A stretch of 62,056 bases of DNA, the filler included, from Stramenopiles sp. TOSAG23-6 (Eukaryota): NCBI GenBank assembly GCA_900128565.1. It is 15 parts of 15 records of this genome, joined end to end, with 100 filler letters (N's around TTAATTAATTAA, not from the genome) between each part and the next. Parts side by side here need not be neighbours in the genome. Positions count along the whole stretch, not along the records: positions 41,527 to 45,555 come from LT637288.1; 14 more parts are not named here. One strand, 5' to 3'. How positions within the stretch are numbered: the stretch's first letter is position 1; each line of letters opens with the position of its first letter. The notes beneath the pieces are model-generated. The model searched no databases, had not been told where the DNA came from, and saw only the letters and a list, made by a program, of their open reading frames with translations. Both the position numbers and the translations under genes were made by a program. Positions 4,071 through 49,837 of the stretch are shown here, piece after piece.

Positions 4071-4170
4071 NNNNNNNNNNNNNNNNNNNNNNNNNNNNNN
4101 NNNNNNNNNNNNNNTTAATTAATTAANNNNNNNNNNNNNNNNNNNNNNNNNNNNNNNNNNNNNNNNNNNN
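4071..4170. other. Artificial contig linker N..TTAATTAATTAA..N (also ~8239, 12407, 16571, 20727, 24880, 29026, 33164, 37296, 41427, 45556, 49685, 53809, 57933)
   Basis: Identical ~100-nt N-padded six-frame-stop spacer every ~4.1 kb; contig lengths decrease along the window. Confidence 0.98.
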
Positions 4171-35982: not shown

Positions 35983-37240
35983 TTGTTCTCGTCACCTGCA
36001 TCAGATTCTCCGGAGCGAGACTCCAAAAGTACCGATGGGTCAACTCCCCCTTTATTAGTATCAGATTCTGCGAATGCTACTCCAAGTCCTGGAACATCAC
36101 CAGATTCTAGATCAAGTAGTATTACTCCACCTAAAAAGAATGCGAGTATCACACCAAATATTGATACTCAAGCTTGTCCGCCAAAACCCGTGTGCGTCAC
36201 GACGCAAAACGACCTACACNAATATANTNCACAGAATGTCGTATTAAATGACACGTGCGCGACTGATCCTACAGTCTCTCAGACAACAAAACAAAGTGCG
36301 ACGGAAACATTGAACCATTCAAATGATTCTCACATGCCGCATTTAGGTTCCAACGATTCAAATATGCCAAATGTAGGTATGTTTCAAACACAAAAATTGG
36401 TAGATAACCCTAATGTCAATGGTGTCAATTTACAACAAATATTTGAAAACTCTCAACGAACAAACTTAACACCAATAGCTGACCAAGAAGTGGCCCACTT
36501 CGATAAAATGCCTCCCAGACCATTTACAAACACATTTCAAAACCAACATCCAATGGAATATGCATCAATGAATGGAATACCAAATGTTGCAACAAGTTTT
36601 ATTCCAGTTCTGAATCAGAATTCCATGAACGGAAATTCCATGAGTTTTAATAATGCGAACCAACCCCCTACAAATTTTAATCCTCAATTTCCATTTTCAT
36701 CTTTTCCAAATGGAAGTATGATACATCCAACTAATGGGAATATGATTAATCCCATCATGATGCAACACCTCTTGAACCAAAATATAAATCCAAATTTTAT
36801 GCCTGTTCCAACCAAGATGCCAAATATGCCAAATGTAGATGTTGATCTTAGTAGATTGTGTTCATCGTTACCATCCTCATGCTTTAAGTCGCCTTTGCCT
36901 TTGAATGAAAACAGTCAAAATGCTCATAATGTAACATATCCTTTCCATGTATTACAATCTTCACAACTAAATAGCCCAATGAAACAATTTTCTCCAACAC
37001 AAACTCCTATACAAATTCCGAGTTTGTGTCCACAATCAACAAAACATGTATGTTCCATGTTTTTTGAAATTTTTTTGAAATTTTTTTGTAAAAATTTTTT
37101 TTTTTTATTTTTTACTAAATATGTTTTTTTTTTTAAATATTTTTCTACAATACAAGAGTTCCGAGCAATGGGTGCTTTGAGTAGTCTTAGAAACACAAAC
37201 TGGGCACAAGTAAAAGGAGGGCTTTCTGGTCTTGGTAGTA
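35983..37240 (+). CDS. Low-complexity N/P/Q/S-rich protein (start uncertain, 3'-partial); introner 37048-~37155 and another from 37241
   Basis: Long ORF containing family repeats. Confidence 0.55.
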
Positions 37241-37395
37241 TGTATGTTTTATTTTTTTTTTTTAAATTTGAAATTCAAATTTTTTTTTTCGTACGNNNNN
37301 NNNNNNNNNNNNNNNNNNNNNNNNNNNNNNNNNNNNNNNTTAATTAATTAANNNNNNNNNNNNNNNNNNNNNNNNNNNNNNNNNNNNNNNNNNNN

Positions 37396-38892
37396 ACACG
37401 ACTCATATGCGCGTCCAGAAGAACAATAATAATTACCATGATCTTCGCTGATTGGGCTTATTTCTGGATATCCTCCACATTGCACACACAAATTAGTAGT
37501 GATAAAATCTAGATTAATAAAATGTACACGTTTAAAACCTGGGCTACATTTATCACCATCACATGCAAGACATCGTTTATCTGTACTTTTTTTTGAAGAA
37601 CAAAAAGTGCCGTCTTCTGTAGCTTCTGTAGTTCCTCCACATGGCTTGCAATACTCCTTCTCACTACCATCACCAGTAGTAGTATGAGTATCCAAAGTAT
37701 AACCTGGGTTACATTTATTACCACCTTCACATGGTTTACAGTAATTACCAATTGGATGGTCAAAACAAAATGAATGACTTTTAGTAGAATCGGCTGGATG
37801 TCCTCCACATGCTTCGCAATAGGAATTCAATATTCCCTTGTCCACATCTTCTTGGATTTTGAAAAAACCTCGGTTACATGTACCCTCATCACCACTATCA
37901 ACACCACATGGTTGACATCGAGGATCTTAAGTATACCCATTGTTACAAATATCACCTTCACATGGTGCACATTTAGAATTCCCAAAAGTCCTGCTGCAAA
38001 GTGTATGATCATCGCCATCCGGTAATCCTCCACAAGATGGTGCTGGTACTGGTGCTGGTACTGGTACTGGTGCTGGTTCTGCTTCTGCTGTTGTTGTTGC
38101 CGCTATTGCATCTGGTGTTGGTGTTGTTGGTGGTGGTGTTGGTGGTGGTGGTGTTGGAAGACATTGACCATCACTACATATTTCATTTATCTTACAATCT
38201 CCACATAGATCATTAGTACGTAATGCATTAGTTGTAGTATTGTTTGTTTTTGTTGATGATTTGTTATAAAAAAGACCAAAATAAATACCACAACCAATAC
38301 CAACCAATAATAAAATACCTAAAAGTATTTTACAATAACCAGCAATAGCACAACCATTCGCACTACGGTAGCTACAAGAGCCTGACGGACATAAAGTAGT
38401 TTTATTCTCTTTGTTGTTTTTTTTCTTTTTCTTTTGTTTTGAAGAAGAAGACGGCGAAGCTTTCGTTCCATTTACTCCATTTACTGAACCAACTTCAACA
38501 CAGTGTACACTTTTCTTATCTTTCTTATCTTTCTTATCTTTCTTGTTGGATAGATTGATCACAGGATTGACCTGTTTTGTTGTTGTCGTTGTTGTACTTG
38601 CTCCAACTTCAGTATCATTCTCATCATCATCAGCTTCATTGTATGTACGAAACCATTGAAATTGTTTATGTTTTTCTGGTTTTTCTGGTTTTTCTGTTGT
38701 TGTTGTTGTTGTACTTGCTCCAACTTCAACACCTTTGTTATCAGCTTGATTATACTCACAATATGTTTCAAAAGGATATGGTTGTACGGGTTGCTTATCT
38801 TTGTCTTTTGGATCTTCGGTAGTGTACATCGAATGTTTTGTCTTGTTTGTGTCGTTTGTTTCTTGTTGTTCTGAGTTTAGAAATGAAAACAT
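37396..38892 (-). CDS. Single-pass membrane protein with Cys-rich (CxxCGG) repeats; in-frame TAA at 37927-37929
   Basis: TM segment ILLGILLLVGIGCGIYFGLFY, P/T-rich stalk, repeats C.PC.G..CN.G[YF]; the frame continues past the stop. Confidence 0.6.
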
Positions 38893-39345
38893 ATTATTGA
38901 CAAGATTATTGACGATGTTTTGTTTTTTTAAGATGTTTTAGAGTACTTAGAGTATTGGCAATTATGATTGATTACCTATGGATGTCCTCTTTCAATTGAT
39001 ATATATAAAGTCTTTTTTTTATAGAAAAGTATATACTATATAAGTATGCACACAAATAAAGATTTCACAAATTTTCGTCGTGTAGGACGAATTCATGTAA
39101 AGTAACGTAAAAAATCTGAAAAAAAAAATCCAATTTAATATCGACTAAAAAAAAAAAAATCGATTTTGTAACCGTTTTTATGTTACAAACGTTTTGAAAA
39201 AATCGAATCTTCTATGAAGTACGTATTTGCCTATATACAAAAAAGACAAAAAGAACAAATTATAACAAAACTTTTGTATATCAAATTCTCTTTACATCGT
39301 TACTTCTTTATATCTTTGTAATACATCCAATACAACTTATAAACA

Positions 39346-41344
39346 ATGAAGAAACTTTTTGTGATAGATACTAAATATCATACAAAAGGAAAGGTAATTT
39401 TTGCTTGGCAAGGTGATGGCCATTTTCTTGCAACGTCAGGTGAAAATGGAATTGTTCACATCTTTGACCGACAAGGAAACGATGTGGATGAAATTGCTAT
39501 CCATGGAGATGTATGCACATCCTTAGAATGGGATAAAGATGGTCAATATTTAGCTGTTTTACAAAAAGGTAATGGCGTTGTTACCTTATGGAATCAATCC
39601 ACTCGAAGTATNCAAAAAATCGATACTAATTTAAAAAATCCGACATTTCTTTCTTGGTCCATAAACGGTCCTCAACTTGCTATTGGTACTGAAAAAGGGA
39701 ATTTATTATTATACAGAAAGGATACAAGACGGATGATACCTATATTAGGTAAACATACAAGACAAATATCATGTGGTTGTTGGTTATCGAATAATACATT
39801 AGCGTTAGGATCAGATGATGGGTCAGTTACGCTAAGCACATCGAATGGTGATACTTTGGATCATTTTGATGTTGGTGGACGTCCAGTGGCAATTCAATGT
39901 GTTGTACAAGACTCATCCTTAGGGTTGACACAAGACATTCAATCTACACAAAAAATAGATGAAAAAAAAGATTCTTTTGGTTCAGATTCAAGTGAAAATA
40001 ATACAGGAGTTGCAGTTACAATTGATTATAACAAAATAATGTTATATAAAGATTTAAGCCTAGGTAAGAAAGAGAAAAAAAGAAAACCAAAAGAAATTCA
40101 ATTTCAAAAACGTTATGGAGCAATTGTTAATTCTGTTTGGTATGCACAAAATTCTTTAATTGTCGCCTTTTCTAAAGGTACATTTTATTTATTTATTTTT
40201 TTTTGTATGAATTTGAATTTTTTTTTCATACGGAATTTCGTACCTAACAATTTTTTTTTTTTTTTTTTTTTTTTATTTTTTTTTTTTTTTTTTGTATGAG
40301 ATTTTTTTTTGTTTTTTTTCATACGAAATTTCGTACCTAATAAATTTTCAAAATTTTTAAAATTTTTTTCACAATATAGGATACACAATCATTGTCTCAA
40401 CAGAGGAGAATGACATTGGAACAGAACTGTTTTCATGGAAATTATTTGATGACCATTTGTATAACATTTGTTATAATACAAAATTAAAACGATTTGCTGC
40501 TCTTGGTGATGATTCATTGAAAATAATTGAATATAATGAAAATGAAAATATTTGGAAAAAAATATCAAATAATTCTATCCAATTAAAAAGTAAAAAATTT
40601 GGTACAGCAACTTCAATGTGTTTTTTTTTTTTTTTTCAATTTTTTTTTTTTTGTATGAATTTTTTTTTTTTTTTGAAAATTTTGTACCTAACAGATTTTC
40701 AAAATTTTTTTTGAAATATTTTTCCAAAATACATCGACTGGACAAATGATGGTCAGATTATTACACTTAGTACAAACACAGCCAATATTACATCATATGT
40801 TGCTACAATGTCAACTATAAATAGTACATTTGGTACAAAAATTTGTTATTGTTCATCATTACAAGAATTGGCTATTATTGACGTACGTTTTTAGTATGAA
40901 TTTTATTTTATTTTATTTTTTTTGTTTTTTGTTTTTTTTGTACGAAATTTTGTACCTAACAAAAAAAAAAAAAATATTTTTCACAAAATATGTACGACAA
41001 AACAATNNNNNNNNNNNNNNNNNNNNNNNNNNNNNNNNNNNNNNNNNNNNNNNNNNNNNNNNNNNNNNNNNNNNNNNNNNNNNNNNNNNNNNNNNNNNNN
41101 NNNNNNNNNNNNNNNNNNNNNNAATTTCGAAATTTTAAATTTTTTTTTTTTTTTTTTTTTTTGTACAACATTTTGTACCTAAACAACAAAAAAAAAATGA
41201 AATATTTGTTTACAATATTTGGGGTAGGAATGAATTCACATTTATGGTTTTATTATTGTACTAAAGGGGAATATAAGTTAGTGAGAGAGAGAGACTATCT
41301 TGGTACAGTTGAACATGTTTGTATTAGTACACAGTATGCAGCAG
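39346..41344 (+). CDS. WDR19: WD repeat protein 19 / IFT144 (3'-partial); introns 40178-40379 (GT-AG), 40618-40734 and 40883-40991 (GT-AT)
   Basis: MKKLF, FAWQGDGHFLA, LEWDKDG, QLAIGTEKGNLLLY....R.IPILGKHTRQI.CGCW, DWTNDGQ, VGMNSHLWFY, RDYLGTV. Confidence 0.9.
40178..40379 (+). mobile_element. Introner-like element forming a canonical GT-AG intron (AG duplication), duplicated core
   Basis: AAA G|GTACATTTT...CACAATATAG|GA TAC. Confidence 0.8.
40618..40734 (+). mobile_element. Introner-like element / GT-AT intron (WDR19)
   Basis: TCA AT|GTGTTTT...CCAAAATACAT|C GAC TGG gives SIDWTNDGQ. Confidence 0.85.
40883..40991 (+). mobile_element. Introner-like element / GT-AT intron (WDR19; 5' flank AC)
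   Basis: GAC|GTACGTTTT...CACAAAATAT|GTA CGA. Confidence 0.75.
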
Positions 41345-41388
41345 GTATGTTTTTTTTTCCTACAAAAATTTCAAAATTTCAAAATTTC

Positions 41389-41426
<38 letters not shown>

Positions 41427-41612
41427 NNNNNNNNNNNNNNNNNNNNNNNNNNNNNNNNNNNNNNNNNNNNTTAATTAATTAANNNNNNNNNNNNNNNNNN
41501 NNNNNNNNNNNNNNNNNNNNNNNNNNTGTGAAAAAATATTTTAGAAAAAAAAATGTTAGGTACGGAATTTCGTACGAAAAAAAACTATTTGAAATTTATA
41601 ATGGAAACGTAC

Positions 41613-42982
41613 ATTACTTCAAAAAGTGAAAGTTGTGCAGTTACTGCAGTAGATTCCTCAATTCTATCGCGAATATCTTGAGATTTTTGTGATTCAATAG
41701 CTCGTATGAAATCAGAGGAACAATCTCTTTCAAGTAATACAGTTTCATGTATTCTGAAAAAATATTTTTTTTATAAAATTTGTTAGGTACACAATTTCGT
41801 ACGAAAAAAAATATAAATTTAAAATTAAGAAAAAAACTAAAACATACAGCTACCTCCGCCAGCTTTTGGTGATGGCGTCGTTGAAGTAAAAGACAGTTGT
41901 TGAAATGTTAGGGATTTTTTAGGAGTTTCCAAAGAAACCATATTCGAATCTGAATGTATTGTGAAAAAATATTAAAAAAAAAAAAAACTCAAATTTGTTA
42001 GGTACGAAATTTCGTATGAAAAAAAAATTAAATTAGAAATTCATATAAAACGTACATGTAATCGTCTTGACCTACGGCGACTATTTTTGTTATTCTTATT
42101 CACCCGTTTCGACATTGGAGTTGCAATTTCGATAAATTTTTCAACTTCATGTATTCAGGAAGAATATATCAAATTTGAAATTTGTTAGAGATGTTGCAAA
42201 ATTTGGATTATGTAAAACGTTAGGTACAAAATTTCGTATGAAACCAAAATTGATAATAAAAACGTACGTGAGAATTATCAATCAGAAAAATGTATGCGAC
42301 AATTGATATTAGAAGTACAATGTAAGCACTACTAAAATACAAATGAGTTCCAGTGCTATGAGCACCTTCTGTAGCAGCTTTCGTGATAACTTTTAAAATA
42401 CCCATGATAATCCCAGCAAAGCCAATTCCGCTGGATACTGCAGAAGTGTGCGCACCTGTACAACACCCTGCAATAGCAAACATGGAGCCTTGCACAACAG
42501 CACCACCAAATCCAACGAGAACGCCCATAACCATAATTTCCCAGAACTCTGATACACCATCTTTAGTTATTAAATATTGAGTAATAATACAAACACCAAC
42601 AAGCATAATTAGACCACCTACAACGTTAACTTTATGCGAAAACGGAAAGCCAAAAGCAGCACTAAGACCGAGAACAAAAATGTTCGGAGTAATTGAACCT
42701 GCCAGAATCCAAGGGATTGACCAGTCACCAAAAAGATGTTTGAAGGTATCAAAGCATTGAATATTATGTATGATATATATGAATTATAATAAATATGAAT
42801 AAATATAGCAATAATTTGGATGATGTATACGATGGTCCAAGAATTGTTACATACAGAAACGCATTGTATGGAGTCAATATCCCAATACCAAGAATAAAGA
42901 ACGCAAGTATTACAAAACGCTCTTTCTTTTTTGGAACGCTAGAAGTGTGCACTGGTATAGATAATGCTGGTGTTGATACCAT
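41613..42982 (-). CDS. Equilibrative nucleoside transporter (ENT/SLC29), 3'-partial; introns 42761-42854, 42149-42267, 41954-42055, 41747-41847
   Basis: FFILGIGILTPYNAFL|QCFDTF, GFGGAVVQGSMFAIAG, HTSAVSSGIGFAGI, LKVITKA. Confidence 0.85.
41747..42267 (-). mobile_element. Three introner-like GT-AT introns (41747-41847, 41954-42055, 42149-42267) in the ENT central loop
   Basis: GCT|GTATG..AATACAT|GAA; CAT|GTACG..AATACAT|TCA; CAC|GTACG..AATACAT|GAA. Confidence 0.8.
42761..42854 (-). other. GT-AT intron lacking the introner core
   Basis: TTT CT|GTATGTAAC...TACATAATAT|T CAA TGC restores PYNAFLQCFDTF, colinear with the ENT PWNAFITAVDYF pattern; no AG near the 3' end. Confidence 0.75.
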
Positions 42983-43359
42983 TTTAAAATGAATTACTGT
43001 AAAACCTTAGTAAAAAATGTTTTAGGTAATATCTCGCACCACTATACAGATACTGTAGAACACGACGTAGTATTTACAAACAGAACGGAATATAGTCAGT
43101 CCAAGTGTGTCAAATTCAATTTTTTGATATTTCGTGTAATTACCACTGAGCAAAGTGCAATTGCGTATTTCGTGTTACGACACCGACGCGATTGCCAATT
43201 GGTTTTTTTCTGAAATATTATTAAATTTTTCTAAAAGCAAATGTCGGACATCATCTATCTCCGAGAACCATAACGGTAAAGATACAAAGATACCATAACT
43301 TTTGTATCAGTATTTACATTATATATTAACAAGCCAACTCTTCGCAACATTAGAACAAT

Positions 43360-44782
43360 ATGCCAATACCTCTAAGTGATAAAGGCATGAAGTCACCGCG
43401 CCTGTCTTTGACTGCGAGTCAATCAAGTGTGCCGGTAAACAACGATTCTCAGCACGTCAGGGGTAAAAAAATTCTCATCGTTGACGACAATCATCAAGAA
43501 AGAGGAGAAACGCAAGCAAGGTTATTAAAAGCAGGCGTAAAAAGTGCCGTCCCTGTTGACTGCGCAGAAGCAGCTGCTTTATTTGCTGAGAAACGCCCCC
43601 TGCATACCATGTTTGATGTAGTCCTACTTGATTGGCGCTGTCCCAACGTTCAAGGAATTCCGTTTCCACGCCTATTATCGGATACATACAACGGTACTGA
43701 ATTACGTGTATTTATTACTGAACCCAATGCTCGGCCTCACCAGTCAAGAAATGGATTACATGTACTTTCCAAGCCCATCGTGATGCATGAACTCGAACAC
43801 TTGTGTTCTTTACCACCGCACACTTTATGGGGTCCTGTGCCTGCCGAACCTGTTCATCCACTCTACAGCCAAACTGCTCCAGGTTCACCTTCGCATTCTT
43901 TTAACATTGACTCATGGAGACAGACTAATCATGATATTGTACAGGACCAAAGAAGACAGTTGGCACCAGGTGCAGTTTATGCCGATGATGAGGAAACTGA
44001 ATATGAGAACCCTAAAAAATACCACCATGCAACTCCACACGATGAACCTCACGGGATGACCTTTGGAATGAACCATGACGAGCTCTCAAAGACAGAACAA
44101 AACATGATGCTTTTTGCCGCTTTTGCCTTTTTCATTGCTGCACTTGCATGTTTTATCAAGTATACTACGGAAGTTAAGAAAGACAACCCAAAGCATTTGG
44201 ATCTTTATGTTGCTACTACTGGAGTTTCAATGATGGCGTTCTGTGCATATCTTGCCAAATCAATTGGTCAAGGATATATCACTGTAAATGGTGTGACTAT
44301 CTGTCATGTTCGTTACATTGATTGGTTCTGTACCACACCACTCATGATTTACGATTTAACTGCTCTCGCTGGGGCTTCAACGGCTACATCAATTTTTACA
44401 ATCCTTGTTGATTTATGTATGATTGTTTTTGGAATTGTTGGAATGAGCTCGGCTGAATGGCGTCACAAATGTATCTGGTATTTTGTGGCGTGCGTTTTTT
44501 ATATCGTTCTCATTTACCTACTGTTGTCACCAATCCAATCCGCAGTGGACAGGGAAAAAACCGAAAGCAACACAAGATGTTTACGGCACATTGGTAACTA
44601 TGACAATTGTTTCATGGACAGCATATCCTTTGGTTACCTTGAATGGACCTAACGGTGTTTACGTTAATTCTAAGGACGTGGTTGGGTGTTACAGCCACCA
44701 CACAGAAGCTATTTTGATTGTATTCTTGGATCTTGTTTCAAAAATTGGTTTTGAGGCAATTCTCATATTTTCCGATTATTAA
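43360..44782 (+). CDS. Receiver (REC) domain - microbial (type-1) rhodopsin fusion, DTD motif; 1-nt frameshift at ~44555-44560
   Basis: ILIVDD...DVVLLDWRCP...VFIT...LSKP; helix C RYIDWFCTTPLMIYD; helix F SWTAYPLV; helix G LDLVSKIGF in the +1 frame. Confidence 0.85.
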
Positions 44783-44982
44783 ATGGCATATTTATTTCTG
44801 AATAAGCATCTTTTACGTTACGCGTAATCGATTAATTGTATAATAAAACTGTATTATAAAAACAAAAATATATTTAAGCAATTGGATCACAAGTAGATTT
44901 TTATTTTCTAATCAAAATGTACTATACGAGCATTGCCATACGAACATAAATCTTTATATAGTAAACAAACTACAAAAATTGT

Positions 44983-45555
44983 TCAAGCAAATGGATCAAA
45001 TTCAATAGAATTGTTTCCATTGTTGAGATTCATGTTTTTGTTATTTTTGTTGTTCATTTCATGTGCTGCAAATGGATCAAATCCATTTGGACCTGAAAAA
45101 GGATCGAATGCCGGGACTGGATTCGTTTTATTGTTGTTTAGGTTCATATTTTTGTTATTTTGGAAACCGCCCATATTATTGTTATTATATCCAACTCTAT
45201 TGGCAGGTGGTGGTCTTGGAGGCATTTGACCATATCCACGATTAAACTGAGGCGATTGACCCATAGAATTTCTACCTTGCATCATAGGAGCATTTAAATT
45301 ACCTTGGTTTTGCATTGCAAGGAATGGATTACTCCCAACTCTCTGACGTCCCTGTGGAGGTGCTTGGGCTACTGATCCAAATGCATCAGACACAGAAAGA
45401 TTATTTACAGGCGCGTGAGCTTGTTGCGGTTGCATTACCGAATTTCCCCCAAAAGGATCAAATTGATTACCAACACCTCCACTGCCACCGCCTGCAGATT
45501 GTGCGAATAATGCATCAAGATCCAATTCACCTTTAGGTCCAGTACTCGACGTAGA
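44983..45555 (-). CDS. C-terminus of an endocytic-adaptor-like protein with DPF/NPF motifs (5'-partial)
   Basis: FDPFG, SNPFL, FDPFS, FDPFA x2 in a disordered tail. Confidence 0.55.
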   Translation of the reverse strand, partial: STSSTGPKGELDLDALFAQSAGGGSGGVGNQFDPFGGNSVMQPQQAHAPVNNLSVSDAFGSVAQAPPQGRQRVGSNPFLAMQNQGNLNAPMMQGRNSMGQSPQFNRGYGQMPPRPPPANRVGYNNNNMGGFQNNKNMNLNNNKTNPVPAFDPFSGPNGFDPFAAHEMNNKNNKNMNLNNGNNSIEFDPFA

Positions 45556-47735: not shown

Positions 47736-48992
47736 TTATATACCTTTTGAGTAGCAACACTCTTTTTTGTGTGTACTCTTCCAATGTGTTTTTTGACACT
47801 TCTTTGAACAATACCACGGAAATTTACATGAATTACAAAAGAATAATTTAGTAATTTTGTCAACTTTACCACAATTCACACATTCTGAGTTGTCATTTTT
47901 CAGTATCTCGTTTTTTAGCATCTCATCTGTTGTATCTGTTATCTGTTTTTTTGCTTTCCTTATCCACTTTGCTCCTCTTTTATAATTTTTAGTAACGCCT
48001 TCACCATTATAATAACAGTTACCAAGATTACACTGTGCGTAGATAAAGCCTTGTTTTGCAGCTTTTGTATACCATTTTACAGCAGTTTTATAACATTTAG
48101 TGACTCCATTACCAGTATGATAAAATATTCCAAGATTATGCTGTGCGTTCATATTGCCTTGTTTTGCAGCTTTTGTATACCATTCAGCAGCAGTTTTATA
48201 ACATTTCATGACACCAAGACCCTTCATATATAAAGAACCAAGATTAAACTGTGCATCCATTTGCCCTTGTTTTGCAGCTTTTGTATACCATTTTACAGCA
48301 GTTTTATAACATTTAGTGACTCCATTACCAGTATGATAAAATATTCCAAGATTATGCTGTGCGTTCATATTGCCTTGTTTTGCAGCTTTTGTATACCATT
48401 TAGCAGCAGTTTTATAACATTTAGTCACACCTTGACCATTCTCATAAAATATTCCAAGATTATGCTGTGCATCCATATTGCCTTGTTTTGCAGCTTTTGT
48501 ATACCATTCAGCAGCAGTTTTATTACATTTAGTGACTCCATTACCTTCCTCCATATAAAATACACCAAGATTATACTGTGCGTTCACATGGCCTTGATTT
48601 GCAGCTTTTGCAAACCATTTTACAGCAGTGACTCCATTACCTTCCTCCTTATAAAATACACCAAGAATAAACTGTGCATCCATTTGCCCTTGATTTGCAG
48701 CTTTTGTATACCATTTTACAGCAGTTTTATAACATTTAGTGACTCCATTACCATTATGATAACATAAACCAAGATTAAACTGTGCGTCCATGTGGCCTTG
48801 ATTTGCAGCTTTTGTATACCATTTTACAGCAGTTTTATAACTTTTAATGACACCACCATCACCAGAATAATAAAATACACCAAGATTATACTGTGCGATC
48901 ATATGGCCTTGATTTGCATCTTCTGTAAACCATTCAGCGTTTGGCGCATACACATCTCCATAAACATCACCAAGATCTTTCAGTCCTTCCAT
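47736..48992 (-). CDS. Sel1-like repeat protein with C-terminal MYND zinc finger
   Basis: About nine 36-aa Sel1 repeats; CVNC...CNSCKFPWYCSKKCQKTHWKSTHKKEC. Confidence 0.92.
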   Translation of the reverse strand: MEGLKDLGDVYGDVYAPNAEWFTEDANQGHMIAQYNLGVFYYSGDGGVIKSYKTAVKWYTKAANQGHMDAQFNLGLCYHNGNGVTKCYKTAVKWYTKAANQGQMDAQFILGVFYKEEGNGVTAVKWFAKAANQGHVNAQYNLGVFYMEEGNGVTKCNKTAAEWYTKAAKQGNMDAQHNLGIFYENGQGVTKCYKTAAKWYTKAAKQGNMNAQHNLGIFYHTGNGVTKCYKTAVKWYTKAAKQGQMDAQFNLGSLYMKGLGVMKCYKTAAEWYTKAAKQGNMNAQHNLGIFYHTGNGVTKCYKTAVKWYTKAAKQGFIYAQCNLGNCYYNGEGVTKNYKRGAKWIRKAKKQITDTTDEMLKNEILKNDNSECVNCGKVDKITKLFFCNSCKFPWYCSKKCQKTHWKSTHKKECCYSKGI

Positions 48993-49630: not shown

Positions 49631-49837
49631 ATGTATTTTGGAAAAATATTTCAAAAAAAAAAACTAAAATTTGTTAGGTACAAANNNNNNNNNNNNNNNN
49701 NNNNNNNNNNNNNNNNNNNNNNNNNNNNTTAATTAATTAANNNNNNNNNNNNNNNNNNNNNNNNNNNNNNNNNNNNNNNNNNNNGTACAAAATTTTTATA
49801 AAAAAAAAATTCGAATTTGAAAAAAAATAAAACATAC

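Follow-up and report, generated by a model that had tools for sequence, protein, structure and literature searches.

The gene at positions 43360..44782 of the window (the whole stretch of 62,056 nucleotides that was analysed, from assembly GCA_900128565.1 of Stramenopiles sp. TOSAG23-6) encodes a protein of 473 residues, P0003, in which an atypical receiver (REC) domain precedes a seven-helix type-1 rhodopsin. With a probability of roughly 0.55, we consider this protein to be a type-1 proton pump that sits in the membrane inverted (N-in, C-out) and whose pseudo-receiver, in the cytosol, would serve targeting or regulation. The fusion is a real and conserved architecture, apparently undescribed, and represents a variant of the type-1 rhodopsins and not a histidine-kinase rhodopsin (HKR), a channelrhodopsin bearing a response regulator (RR) or a heliorhodopsin.

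Gene model and transcript

The gene and its immediate surroundings are as follows.

43360..44782, + strand: REC-rhodopsin coding sequence, 473 aa, one exon, with one surplus base at about 44555
43309..43359, + strand: 5' UTR; it holds an in-frame TAG (43351-43353) 9 nt upstream of Met1
44552..44560, + strand: G/A homopolymer with an assembly error; the base at 44555 is missing in runs X1, X3 and X4

The first-pass annotation had taken 43360..44782 as a gene; that it is a single gene holds, while the break in the frame of the window had been overlooked. The open reading frame that starts at 43360 meets a stop at 44652, after 430 residues, and helices F and G with the DxxxK motif (LDLVSKIGF) lie in the +1 frame relative to it. 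The break was compared in 4 of the 21 listed sequencing runs, where X3 is independent seawater DNA, X4 is a metatranscriptome, X8 stops short of 44555 and X1 is DNA that is possibly the source of this assembly and, therefore, not independent for this purpose. The base at 44555 is absent in all three runs that cover it, indicating that the break is an assembly error and that the true reading frame has 473 residues. A pseudogene or an intron at this position is ruled out, given that the three runs are one base shorter and have no joint. The product of 473 residues is present twice in the database, as P0003 and P0005, from a 1542-nt contig and a 3556-nt contig.

The RNA contig of X4 corresponds to 43313-44851 without a joint, and both of its ends are intergenic, at points where the DNA contigs continue. 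Given that a single RNA contig spans the whole gene, receiver and rhodopsin are carried by one intron-free message from Met1, although DNA in the RNA library may be another origin of this contig. The AlphaFold model shows a REC fold and seven helices, and the fusion proposed at first is real. The RNA contigs of two studies start at 43309 (X8) and 43313 (X4), which gives a weak hint of the exact transcript start. Transcripts starting downstream of the receiver, for example at MTFGM, would have refuted the first reading; this start is ruled out, since the RNA contigs begin upstream of Met1 and include the in-frame stop.

The receiver domain and the segment that follows it

Three features make up the region ahead of the membrane domain.

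43465..43809, + strand: atypical receiver, aa 36-150, with D42-D43, D91 (43630-32), T120 and K138-P139; alpha-4 absent
43810..43962, + strand: conserved post-REC segment, aa 151-201, with a helix at 183-201 that is modelled confidently
44026..44100, + strand: His-rich juxtamembrane motif HxxxH-D/E-D/E-PHG, aa 223-247, conserved and preceding helix A

All the motifs quoted in the first-pass annotation were recovered, namely VDD (residues 41-43 of the 473), D91, T120 and K138-P139 in the receiver, and R318/D321/T325/D332 and D457/K461 in the rhodopsin. The Pfam model Response_reg matches the full protein with an E-value of 1.9e-5 and 25.2 bits, below its cut-off of 30.2; the REC matches in NCBIfam are all below cut-off, and the ESM Atlas returned generic REC or rhodopsin clusters only. 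In the AlphaFold model, the chain begins disordered, residues 37-150 form a receiver fold without alpha-4, and the helix at 183-201 is followed by disorder at 203-230. The stretch between the two domains, at first estimated at 110 residues, is about 97 residues long, and the first 50 of these are conserved and in part folded.

The acidic pair and the phospho-acceptor Asp are kept in the three full homologues and the Lys-Pro in all four members, and the Thr/Ser switch of beta-4 is a Thr in P0003 only and a Leu in the other three, followed by a bulky or charged residue (E, K or R). Among the matches listed, the closest receivers are those of hybrid histidine kinases. In the incomplete 21-Mb assembly G000, no other REC, no HisKA, no Hpt and no sensor-kinase ATPase were found. 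Its HATPase_c matches fall at seven loci, six of which, once translated, are by eye MutL, topoisomerase II, HSP90 or PDK-like, and the remaining one equals a topoisomerase match in both score and frame length. Identity between P0003 and its homologue P0004 is 68/115 in the receiver and 137/223 in the 7-TM domain, and this similarity indicates that the receiver is under comparable constraint. The domain is more probably a pseudo-receiver than the target of a phosphorelay.

The rhodopsin domain

The membrane domain contains the following features.

44101..44770, + strand: 7-TM type-1 rhodopsin domain, aa 248-470, followed only by a tail of a few residues
44257..44259, + strand: K300, end of helix B, a clade signature (23/23 against 0/76)
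44311..44355, + strand: helix C, R318/D321/T325/D332 (alignment columns)
44729..44755, + strand: helix G, D457xxxK461 with the Schiff-base Lys, and the clade-specific E465

The full protein matches Bac_rhodopsin of Pfam with an E-value of 4.8e-39. With an alignment of 96 rows, AlphaFold reaches a pLDDT of 83.5 (37.6 from the single sequence) and models exactly seven helices, after which the chain stops at 473. No TM0 is present in the model, and the most hydrophobic 19-mer ahead of helix A (KD 1.08, 0.78 and 0.97 in P0003, P0004 and P0180, respectively) lies inside the REC fold, so that model and hydrophobicity both bear out the earlier impression that an extra helix is missing. The seven helices superpose with a TM-score, normalised by the target, of 0.93 on SRII and 0.91 on bacteriorhodopsin (BR), and the best PDB sequence matches are MrHR, middle rhodopsin, SRII, Arch and BR.

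The residues R318, D321, T325 and D332 are the equivalents of R82, D85, T89 and D96 in BR numbering. The equivalents of R82, D85, T89, D96, D115, E204 (E449), D212 and K216 are kept; the RDTD set, as well as the T46, D115 and E204 equivalents, is present in all four members of the REC clade. The equivalent of W189 is lost (T or V at this position), as is that of E194 (N or S), although E194 is missing in many pumps and its loss is, therefore, not exclusive to these proteins. Four residues after the Schiff-base Lys, Glu465 is found in 22/23 rows of the clade and in 0/76 of the others, of which 66 have a Gly. With the W189 and E194 equivalents gone and Glu465 added, transport may be altered or reversed.

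On the N-terminal face, conserved His and Cys residues form a cluster (H223, H227, H231, C315, H316, H369 and H446; window positions 44026-44100, 44302-44307, 44464-44466 and 44696-44701), possibly a metal site or a pH antenna. In the incomplete genome, no retinal-making gene (BCD, RPE65) was found, where the BCD control itself matched nowhere.

Homologues and phylogeny

A word-indexed search of 5004 candidates gave two matches, P0003 and EukProt g6489.t1 (P0004; REC and rhodopsin, 52%). The full HMMER scan used the frameshifted ORF of 430 residues as query and gave 1045 matches; among the 150 listed, it brought in P0006, which covers the rhodopsin part, and P0007, which covers the REC half and linker; both may be pieces of REC-rhodopsin genes. 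When Pfam was applied to 88 proteins (P0004 and 87 of the 150 listed), both domains were found only in P0003 and P0004. A search for longer relatives of P0006 led to P0180, a 5'-partial protein of 581 residues with PX (over cut-off), REC and rhodopsin. The architecture of REC with Bac_rhodopsin recurs in two other eukaryotic proteins, P0004 and P0180. No shorter REC-only relatives were found among 267 candidates.

Of 171 stored proteins with a rhodopsin domain, 135 could be aligned over more than 150 positions; removal of 25 near-duplicates and 10 incomplete rows left 100, and of one further duplicate, 99. The trees are quick ones, with SH-aLRT support only, a midpoint root and no named references. 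In these trees, the four REC-clade rows and 19 others form one clade with an SH-aLRT of 97 on the whole rhodopsin domain, and of 98 when only TM columns are kept and both loops and K300 are removed. The DTE rhodopsins of this clade include P0013, P0014, P0018, P0025, P0029, P0032, P0033, P0035, P0036, P0038, P0054, P0093, P0183 and others. Species names were available for 2 of the 13 sister-group clusters looked up, and both are dinoflagellate (Effrenium/Symbiodinium and Prorocentrum).

Other domain combinations were also seen. Among the clade relatives P0199/P0121 and P0158, an N-terminal WW (over cut-off, in P0199), a SAM-like stretch recognised by eye and a weak BRCT match were seen. P0108, P0113 and P0186 comprise a rhodopsin with a C-terminal BAH-like match, an FMO-rhodopsin and a TPR-rhodopsin-RPAP3, and the last two joins may be chimeric gene calls.

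Membrane orientation

The topology puzzle raised by the first-pass annotation has become sharper, given that the relative P0180 has both PX and REC at its N-terminus and no TM0. The N-terminal domains of the clade are of cytosolic type, with REC in three full proteins, PX in P0180 and WW in P0199; PX and WW are domain types of the cytosol. A folded N-terminal domain hampers translocation, as stated in the relevant passage of PMC8379923. In the 19 sister rows, the N-tails are long and hydrophilic and lack a signal peptide. A signal-peptide-like core was found in 0/22 N-tails of at least 40 residues in the clade versus 11/24 in the others, and in 0/11 versus 8/10 for tails of at least 100 residues; many of these protein starts are gene calls on transcript contigs and may be truncated. 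PKA-like motifs occur in 9/22 N-tails of the clade versus 2/24 of the others. A Cys pair in the C-tail, which could be a palmitoylation site, occurs in 11/19 sister rows versus 3/76 of the others.

The charges of the loops point in the same direction for the sister group. The K+R bias, calculated as canonical cytosolic loops minus outer loops with K300 left out, has a median of -5 (-9 to +1) in the 19 sister rows versus +3 (-3 to +10) in the 76 others. For the REC clade itself, the values are +4, +3, -1 and -1, which are not distinct from canonical (two-sided p 0.18 against the rest, where the kinship of the rows means that p-values overstate). The net-charge bias of the REC clade is +2, -1, -4 and -7 against a median of +3.5, with the metric chosen after the data had been seen. 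P0003 looks canonical, with a K+R bias of +4 and a helix-A flank charge of +4 that predicts N-out; the helix-A flanks of P0004 (+3) and P0006 (+2) predict N-out too, and only P0180 (-2) differs. The PKA-like motifs and the Cys tail of the sister group are present in 0/4 REC-clade rows. AlphaFold gives no membrane orientation. Given that the charges of P0003 itself are canonical, the case for its inversion rests on domain content, on the lack of both TM0 and signal peptide, on the translocation rule and on descent.

Outside the clade, P0085, P0161, P0165 and P0166 form a DTE group with a Val-Pro-rich N-tail of 220-290 residues, articulin/alveolin-like by eye, and a C-terminal Cys-Cys. The N-tails of this group are without a signal peptide, yet its charge bias is canonical.

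Proposed mechanism and alternative explanations

P0003 would be a retinal-binding eukaryotic type-1 rhodopsin in which helix A acts as a signal-anchor whose C-end is translocated, so that the folded N-terminal receiver would stay in the cytosol and the short C-tail would come to lie in the lumen or at the exterior. Light would then drive protons into the cytosol, which the D85 side would face, from the D96 side, which would face the lumen or the outside. The receiver is probably a pseudo-receiver of atypical form that goes back to a hybrid histidine kinase. The large movement that light induces in type-1 rhodopsins takes place on the C-side. The receiver would sit where the bundle moves least during the photocycle, which makes a docking, targeting or regulatory module its most likely role, and not a phosphorelay output. 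For the relative P0180, the PX domain would direct the protein to phosphoinositide-marked endosomal or phagosomal membranes.

More tentatively, and with slightly less than even confidence, this may be extended to the whole eukaryotic DTD/DTE clade, which comprises the REC and PX-REC fusions and widespread proteins of Symbiodiniaceae and Prorocentrum. This clade would have flipped its orientation independently of the heliorhodopsins to become an inward or organelle-to-cytosol proton pump, with REC, PX and WW recruited N-terminally. By their sequences, the members of the DTE clade, dinoflagellate where named, are the strongest candidates for inverted type-1 rhodopsins.

A canonical N-out orientation is unlikely. 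It would make the protein an outward, lumen-acidifying DTD proton pump whose N-region and receiver are threaded into the lumen or exterior, with the receiver as a non-phosphorylated structural, oligomerisation or ligand-binding module. The K+R bias and helix-A flank of P0003 fit canonical pumps, and type-1 rhodopsins are all described in this orientation in the portions of PMC9601134 and PMC12558739 that concern topology. Acidification of the food vacuole is, in the relevant text of PMC8163842, a published hypothesis for the pumps of MAST. The N-region also has NxS/T sequons, two in P0003 and four in P0004, a number that may be due to chance. This orientation would, however, demand that 250-350 residues with folded REC and PX domains cross the membrane without a signal peptide ahead of them, and it sits poorly with PX and WW being cytosolic types and with the reversed charge bias of the sister group. 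A protein whose N-terminus lies within the cytosol could also be a light sensor or a slow or non-pumping photoreceptor, in which the receiver or the post-REC helix relays the light signal to a cytosolic partner, a use of the type-1 scaffold reminiscent of heliorhodopsins; or it could pump inward in its own frame through Glu465 and, being inverted, still acidify the lumen. Both forms together are rather improbable. Heliorhodopsins typically have cytosolic domains fused to their N-terminus, according to part of 10.1101/2021.02.01.429150. Specifically in this clade, the W189 and E194 equivalents are lost and E465, which lies one turn above the Schiff base, is gained; these changes and the His cluster conserved on the N-side would suit such a function. 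A protein of this kind is nonetheless disfavoured by the full DTD set of donor and acceptor, kept with the T46, D115 and E204 equivalents in all four members, and by the large movement being on the C-side, away from the N-terminal domain.

It had also been proposed that the protein is regulated by a phosphorelay, in which a histidine kinase or an Hpt protein would phosphorylate D91 and so switch transport. The part of this proposal that stands is the conservation of D42-D43, D91 and the Lys-Pro, unlike the RR-like domains of channelrhodopsins that have lost the Asp; the nearest receivers among the matches listed come from hybrid kinases, and stramenopiles possess histidine kinases (PMC6324907, in the passage on this group). 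The switch Thr/Ser in one of four members, the bulky or charged residue next to it, the deletion of alpha-4 and an incomplete G000 without HisKA, Hpt or a second REC argue against it, making this mechanism very doubtful.

Relation to known rhodopsins

With the BR-type DTD pumps and the cyanobacterial halorhodopsin/cyanorhodopsin group (MrHR 6wp8/6k6i, middle rhodopsin 9jws, SRII and BR), P0003 shares the 7-TM fold, R82, DTD, DxxxK and the E204 equivalent, at 22-30% identity in the fold matches. It differs from them by its N-region of 247 residues with a REC and its tail of a few residues, by the gain of K300 and E465 and the loss of the W189 and E194 equivalents, and probably by being inverted. 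Histidine-kinase rhodopsins/2c-Cyclop, RhoGC, RhoPDE and bestrhodopsins likewise join a rhodopsin to a signalling domain, and HKRs contain a REC; their kinase, REC or enzyme domains are C-terminal, whereas here the REC is N-terminal, without HisKA or HATPase and without TM0, and the protein ends directly after helix G. According to the section of PMC13739731 on these fusions, enzyme-fused rhodopsins have a TM0, and the non-canonical topologies named there are TM0 or the inversion of heliorhodopsins.

A rhodopsin with an orphan receiver-like domain and no kinase is also found in prasinophyte and viral anion channelrhodopsins (ACRs), green-algal cation channelrhodopsins (CCRs) and labyrinthulean ChRs. 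Their RR-like domain is C-terminal, with Asp57, Thr87 and Lys109 mutated in nearly all of those covered by the relevant part of 10.1101/2020.04.15.042127, whereas here the REC is N-terminal, the Asp and Lys are kept and the rhodopsin is pump-like. No channelrhodopsin was among the best 60 of 130 PDB sequence matches, nor among the fold matches to rank 50. Heliorhodopsins with an N-terminal MORN or Zn-ribbon resemble the present protein in their seven helices, their inferred N-in/C-out orientation and their cytosolic N-terminal domains. They have ESL/SxxxK and belong to a separate Pfam family (PF18761, without a match in P0003), whereas here DTD/DxxxK and Bac_rhodopsin are found. To our knowledge, every known type-1 rhodopsin with a cytosolic N-terminal domain has an extra helix, or else is a heliorhodopsin.

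BR-like rhodopsins have been reported in MAST-1C, 1D, 3A, 3C, 3F and 8B (Labarre et al. 2021, PMC8163842, in the portion that lists them), and the present gene may be among them; the term "response regulator" is absent from the main text of that paper, and its passages on rhodopsins mention neither fusion nor topology. The full-text literature that was searched, a scope with most subscription papers and the major rhodopsin reviews outside it, contained no characterised family of this kind, no rhodopsin with an N-terminal REC or PX and no inverted type-1 clade, a negative that, given this scope, is not proof of novelty. The REC-rhodopsin fusion is already visible in the Pfam annotations of databases.

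If the inverted reading is true, the topology of the superfamily would have been inverted a second time, independently, in a pump of seven helices whose N-terminus carries a folded module in the cytosol, with proton flow opposite to that read from DTD/DTE motifs. This would bear on the many coral-symbiont proteins annotated as "bacteriorhodopsin" and on the hypothesis that marine grazers have their food vacuoles acidified by rhodopsins, and would offer optogenetics a natural inward pump with organelle targeting built in.

Genomic context

The window consists of separate contigs of about 4.1 kb joined together, with N runs at 4071, 8239, 12407 ... 58032; for this reason, GPN1, COG5, WDR19 and Sel1-MYND, being separated from the rhodopsin gene by N runs, are not its neighbours. 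The contig of the rhodopsin (C2799) is window 41527-45555 and holds one other gene and an ORF.

41527..42982, - strand: nucleoside transporter (ENT) gene, upstream and divergent, intron-containing, with its ATG at 42982 and its 3' end unmapped
44983..45525, - strand: DPF/NPF-rich ORF, downstream and convergent

The downstream ORF would, judged by eye from its sequence, encode an endocytic-adaptor-like tail. Given that the intron-containing ENT gene and the DPF/NPF-rich ORF are on the same contig, the rhodopsin gene is eukaryotic, and a bacterial contaminant is ruled out. An upstream PX exon in this species is also ruled out, by the in-frame stop in the RNA contigs and the divergent ENT gene from 42982. 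Pattern scans, which are sensitive to close relatives only, found no relative in GTDB genomes or IMG/VR, and in JGI metagenomes gave one match, a bacterial hydrolase (L015) that is a false positive.

Many genes, the rhodopsin gene not among them, are broken up by a T-rich element that resembles an intron and occurs repeatedly (window 36900-42300 and 49700-49800; loci L009, L010 and L012). At 47736-48992 of the window (- strand), a Sel1-repeat protein has a MYND finger at its C-terminus. The 18S of the assembly looks stramenopile, to judge from signature sequences alone. A second full-length SSU rRNA match (L005, G000:C137:3115-4595), with a lower score than the 18S on contig C3219, is probably mitochondrial or bacterial.
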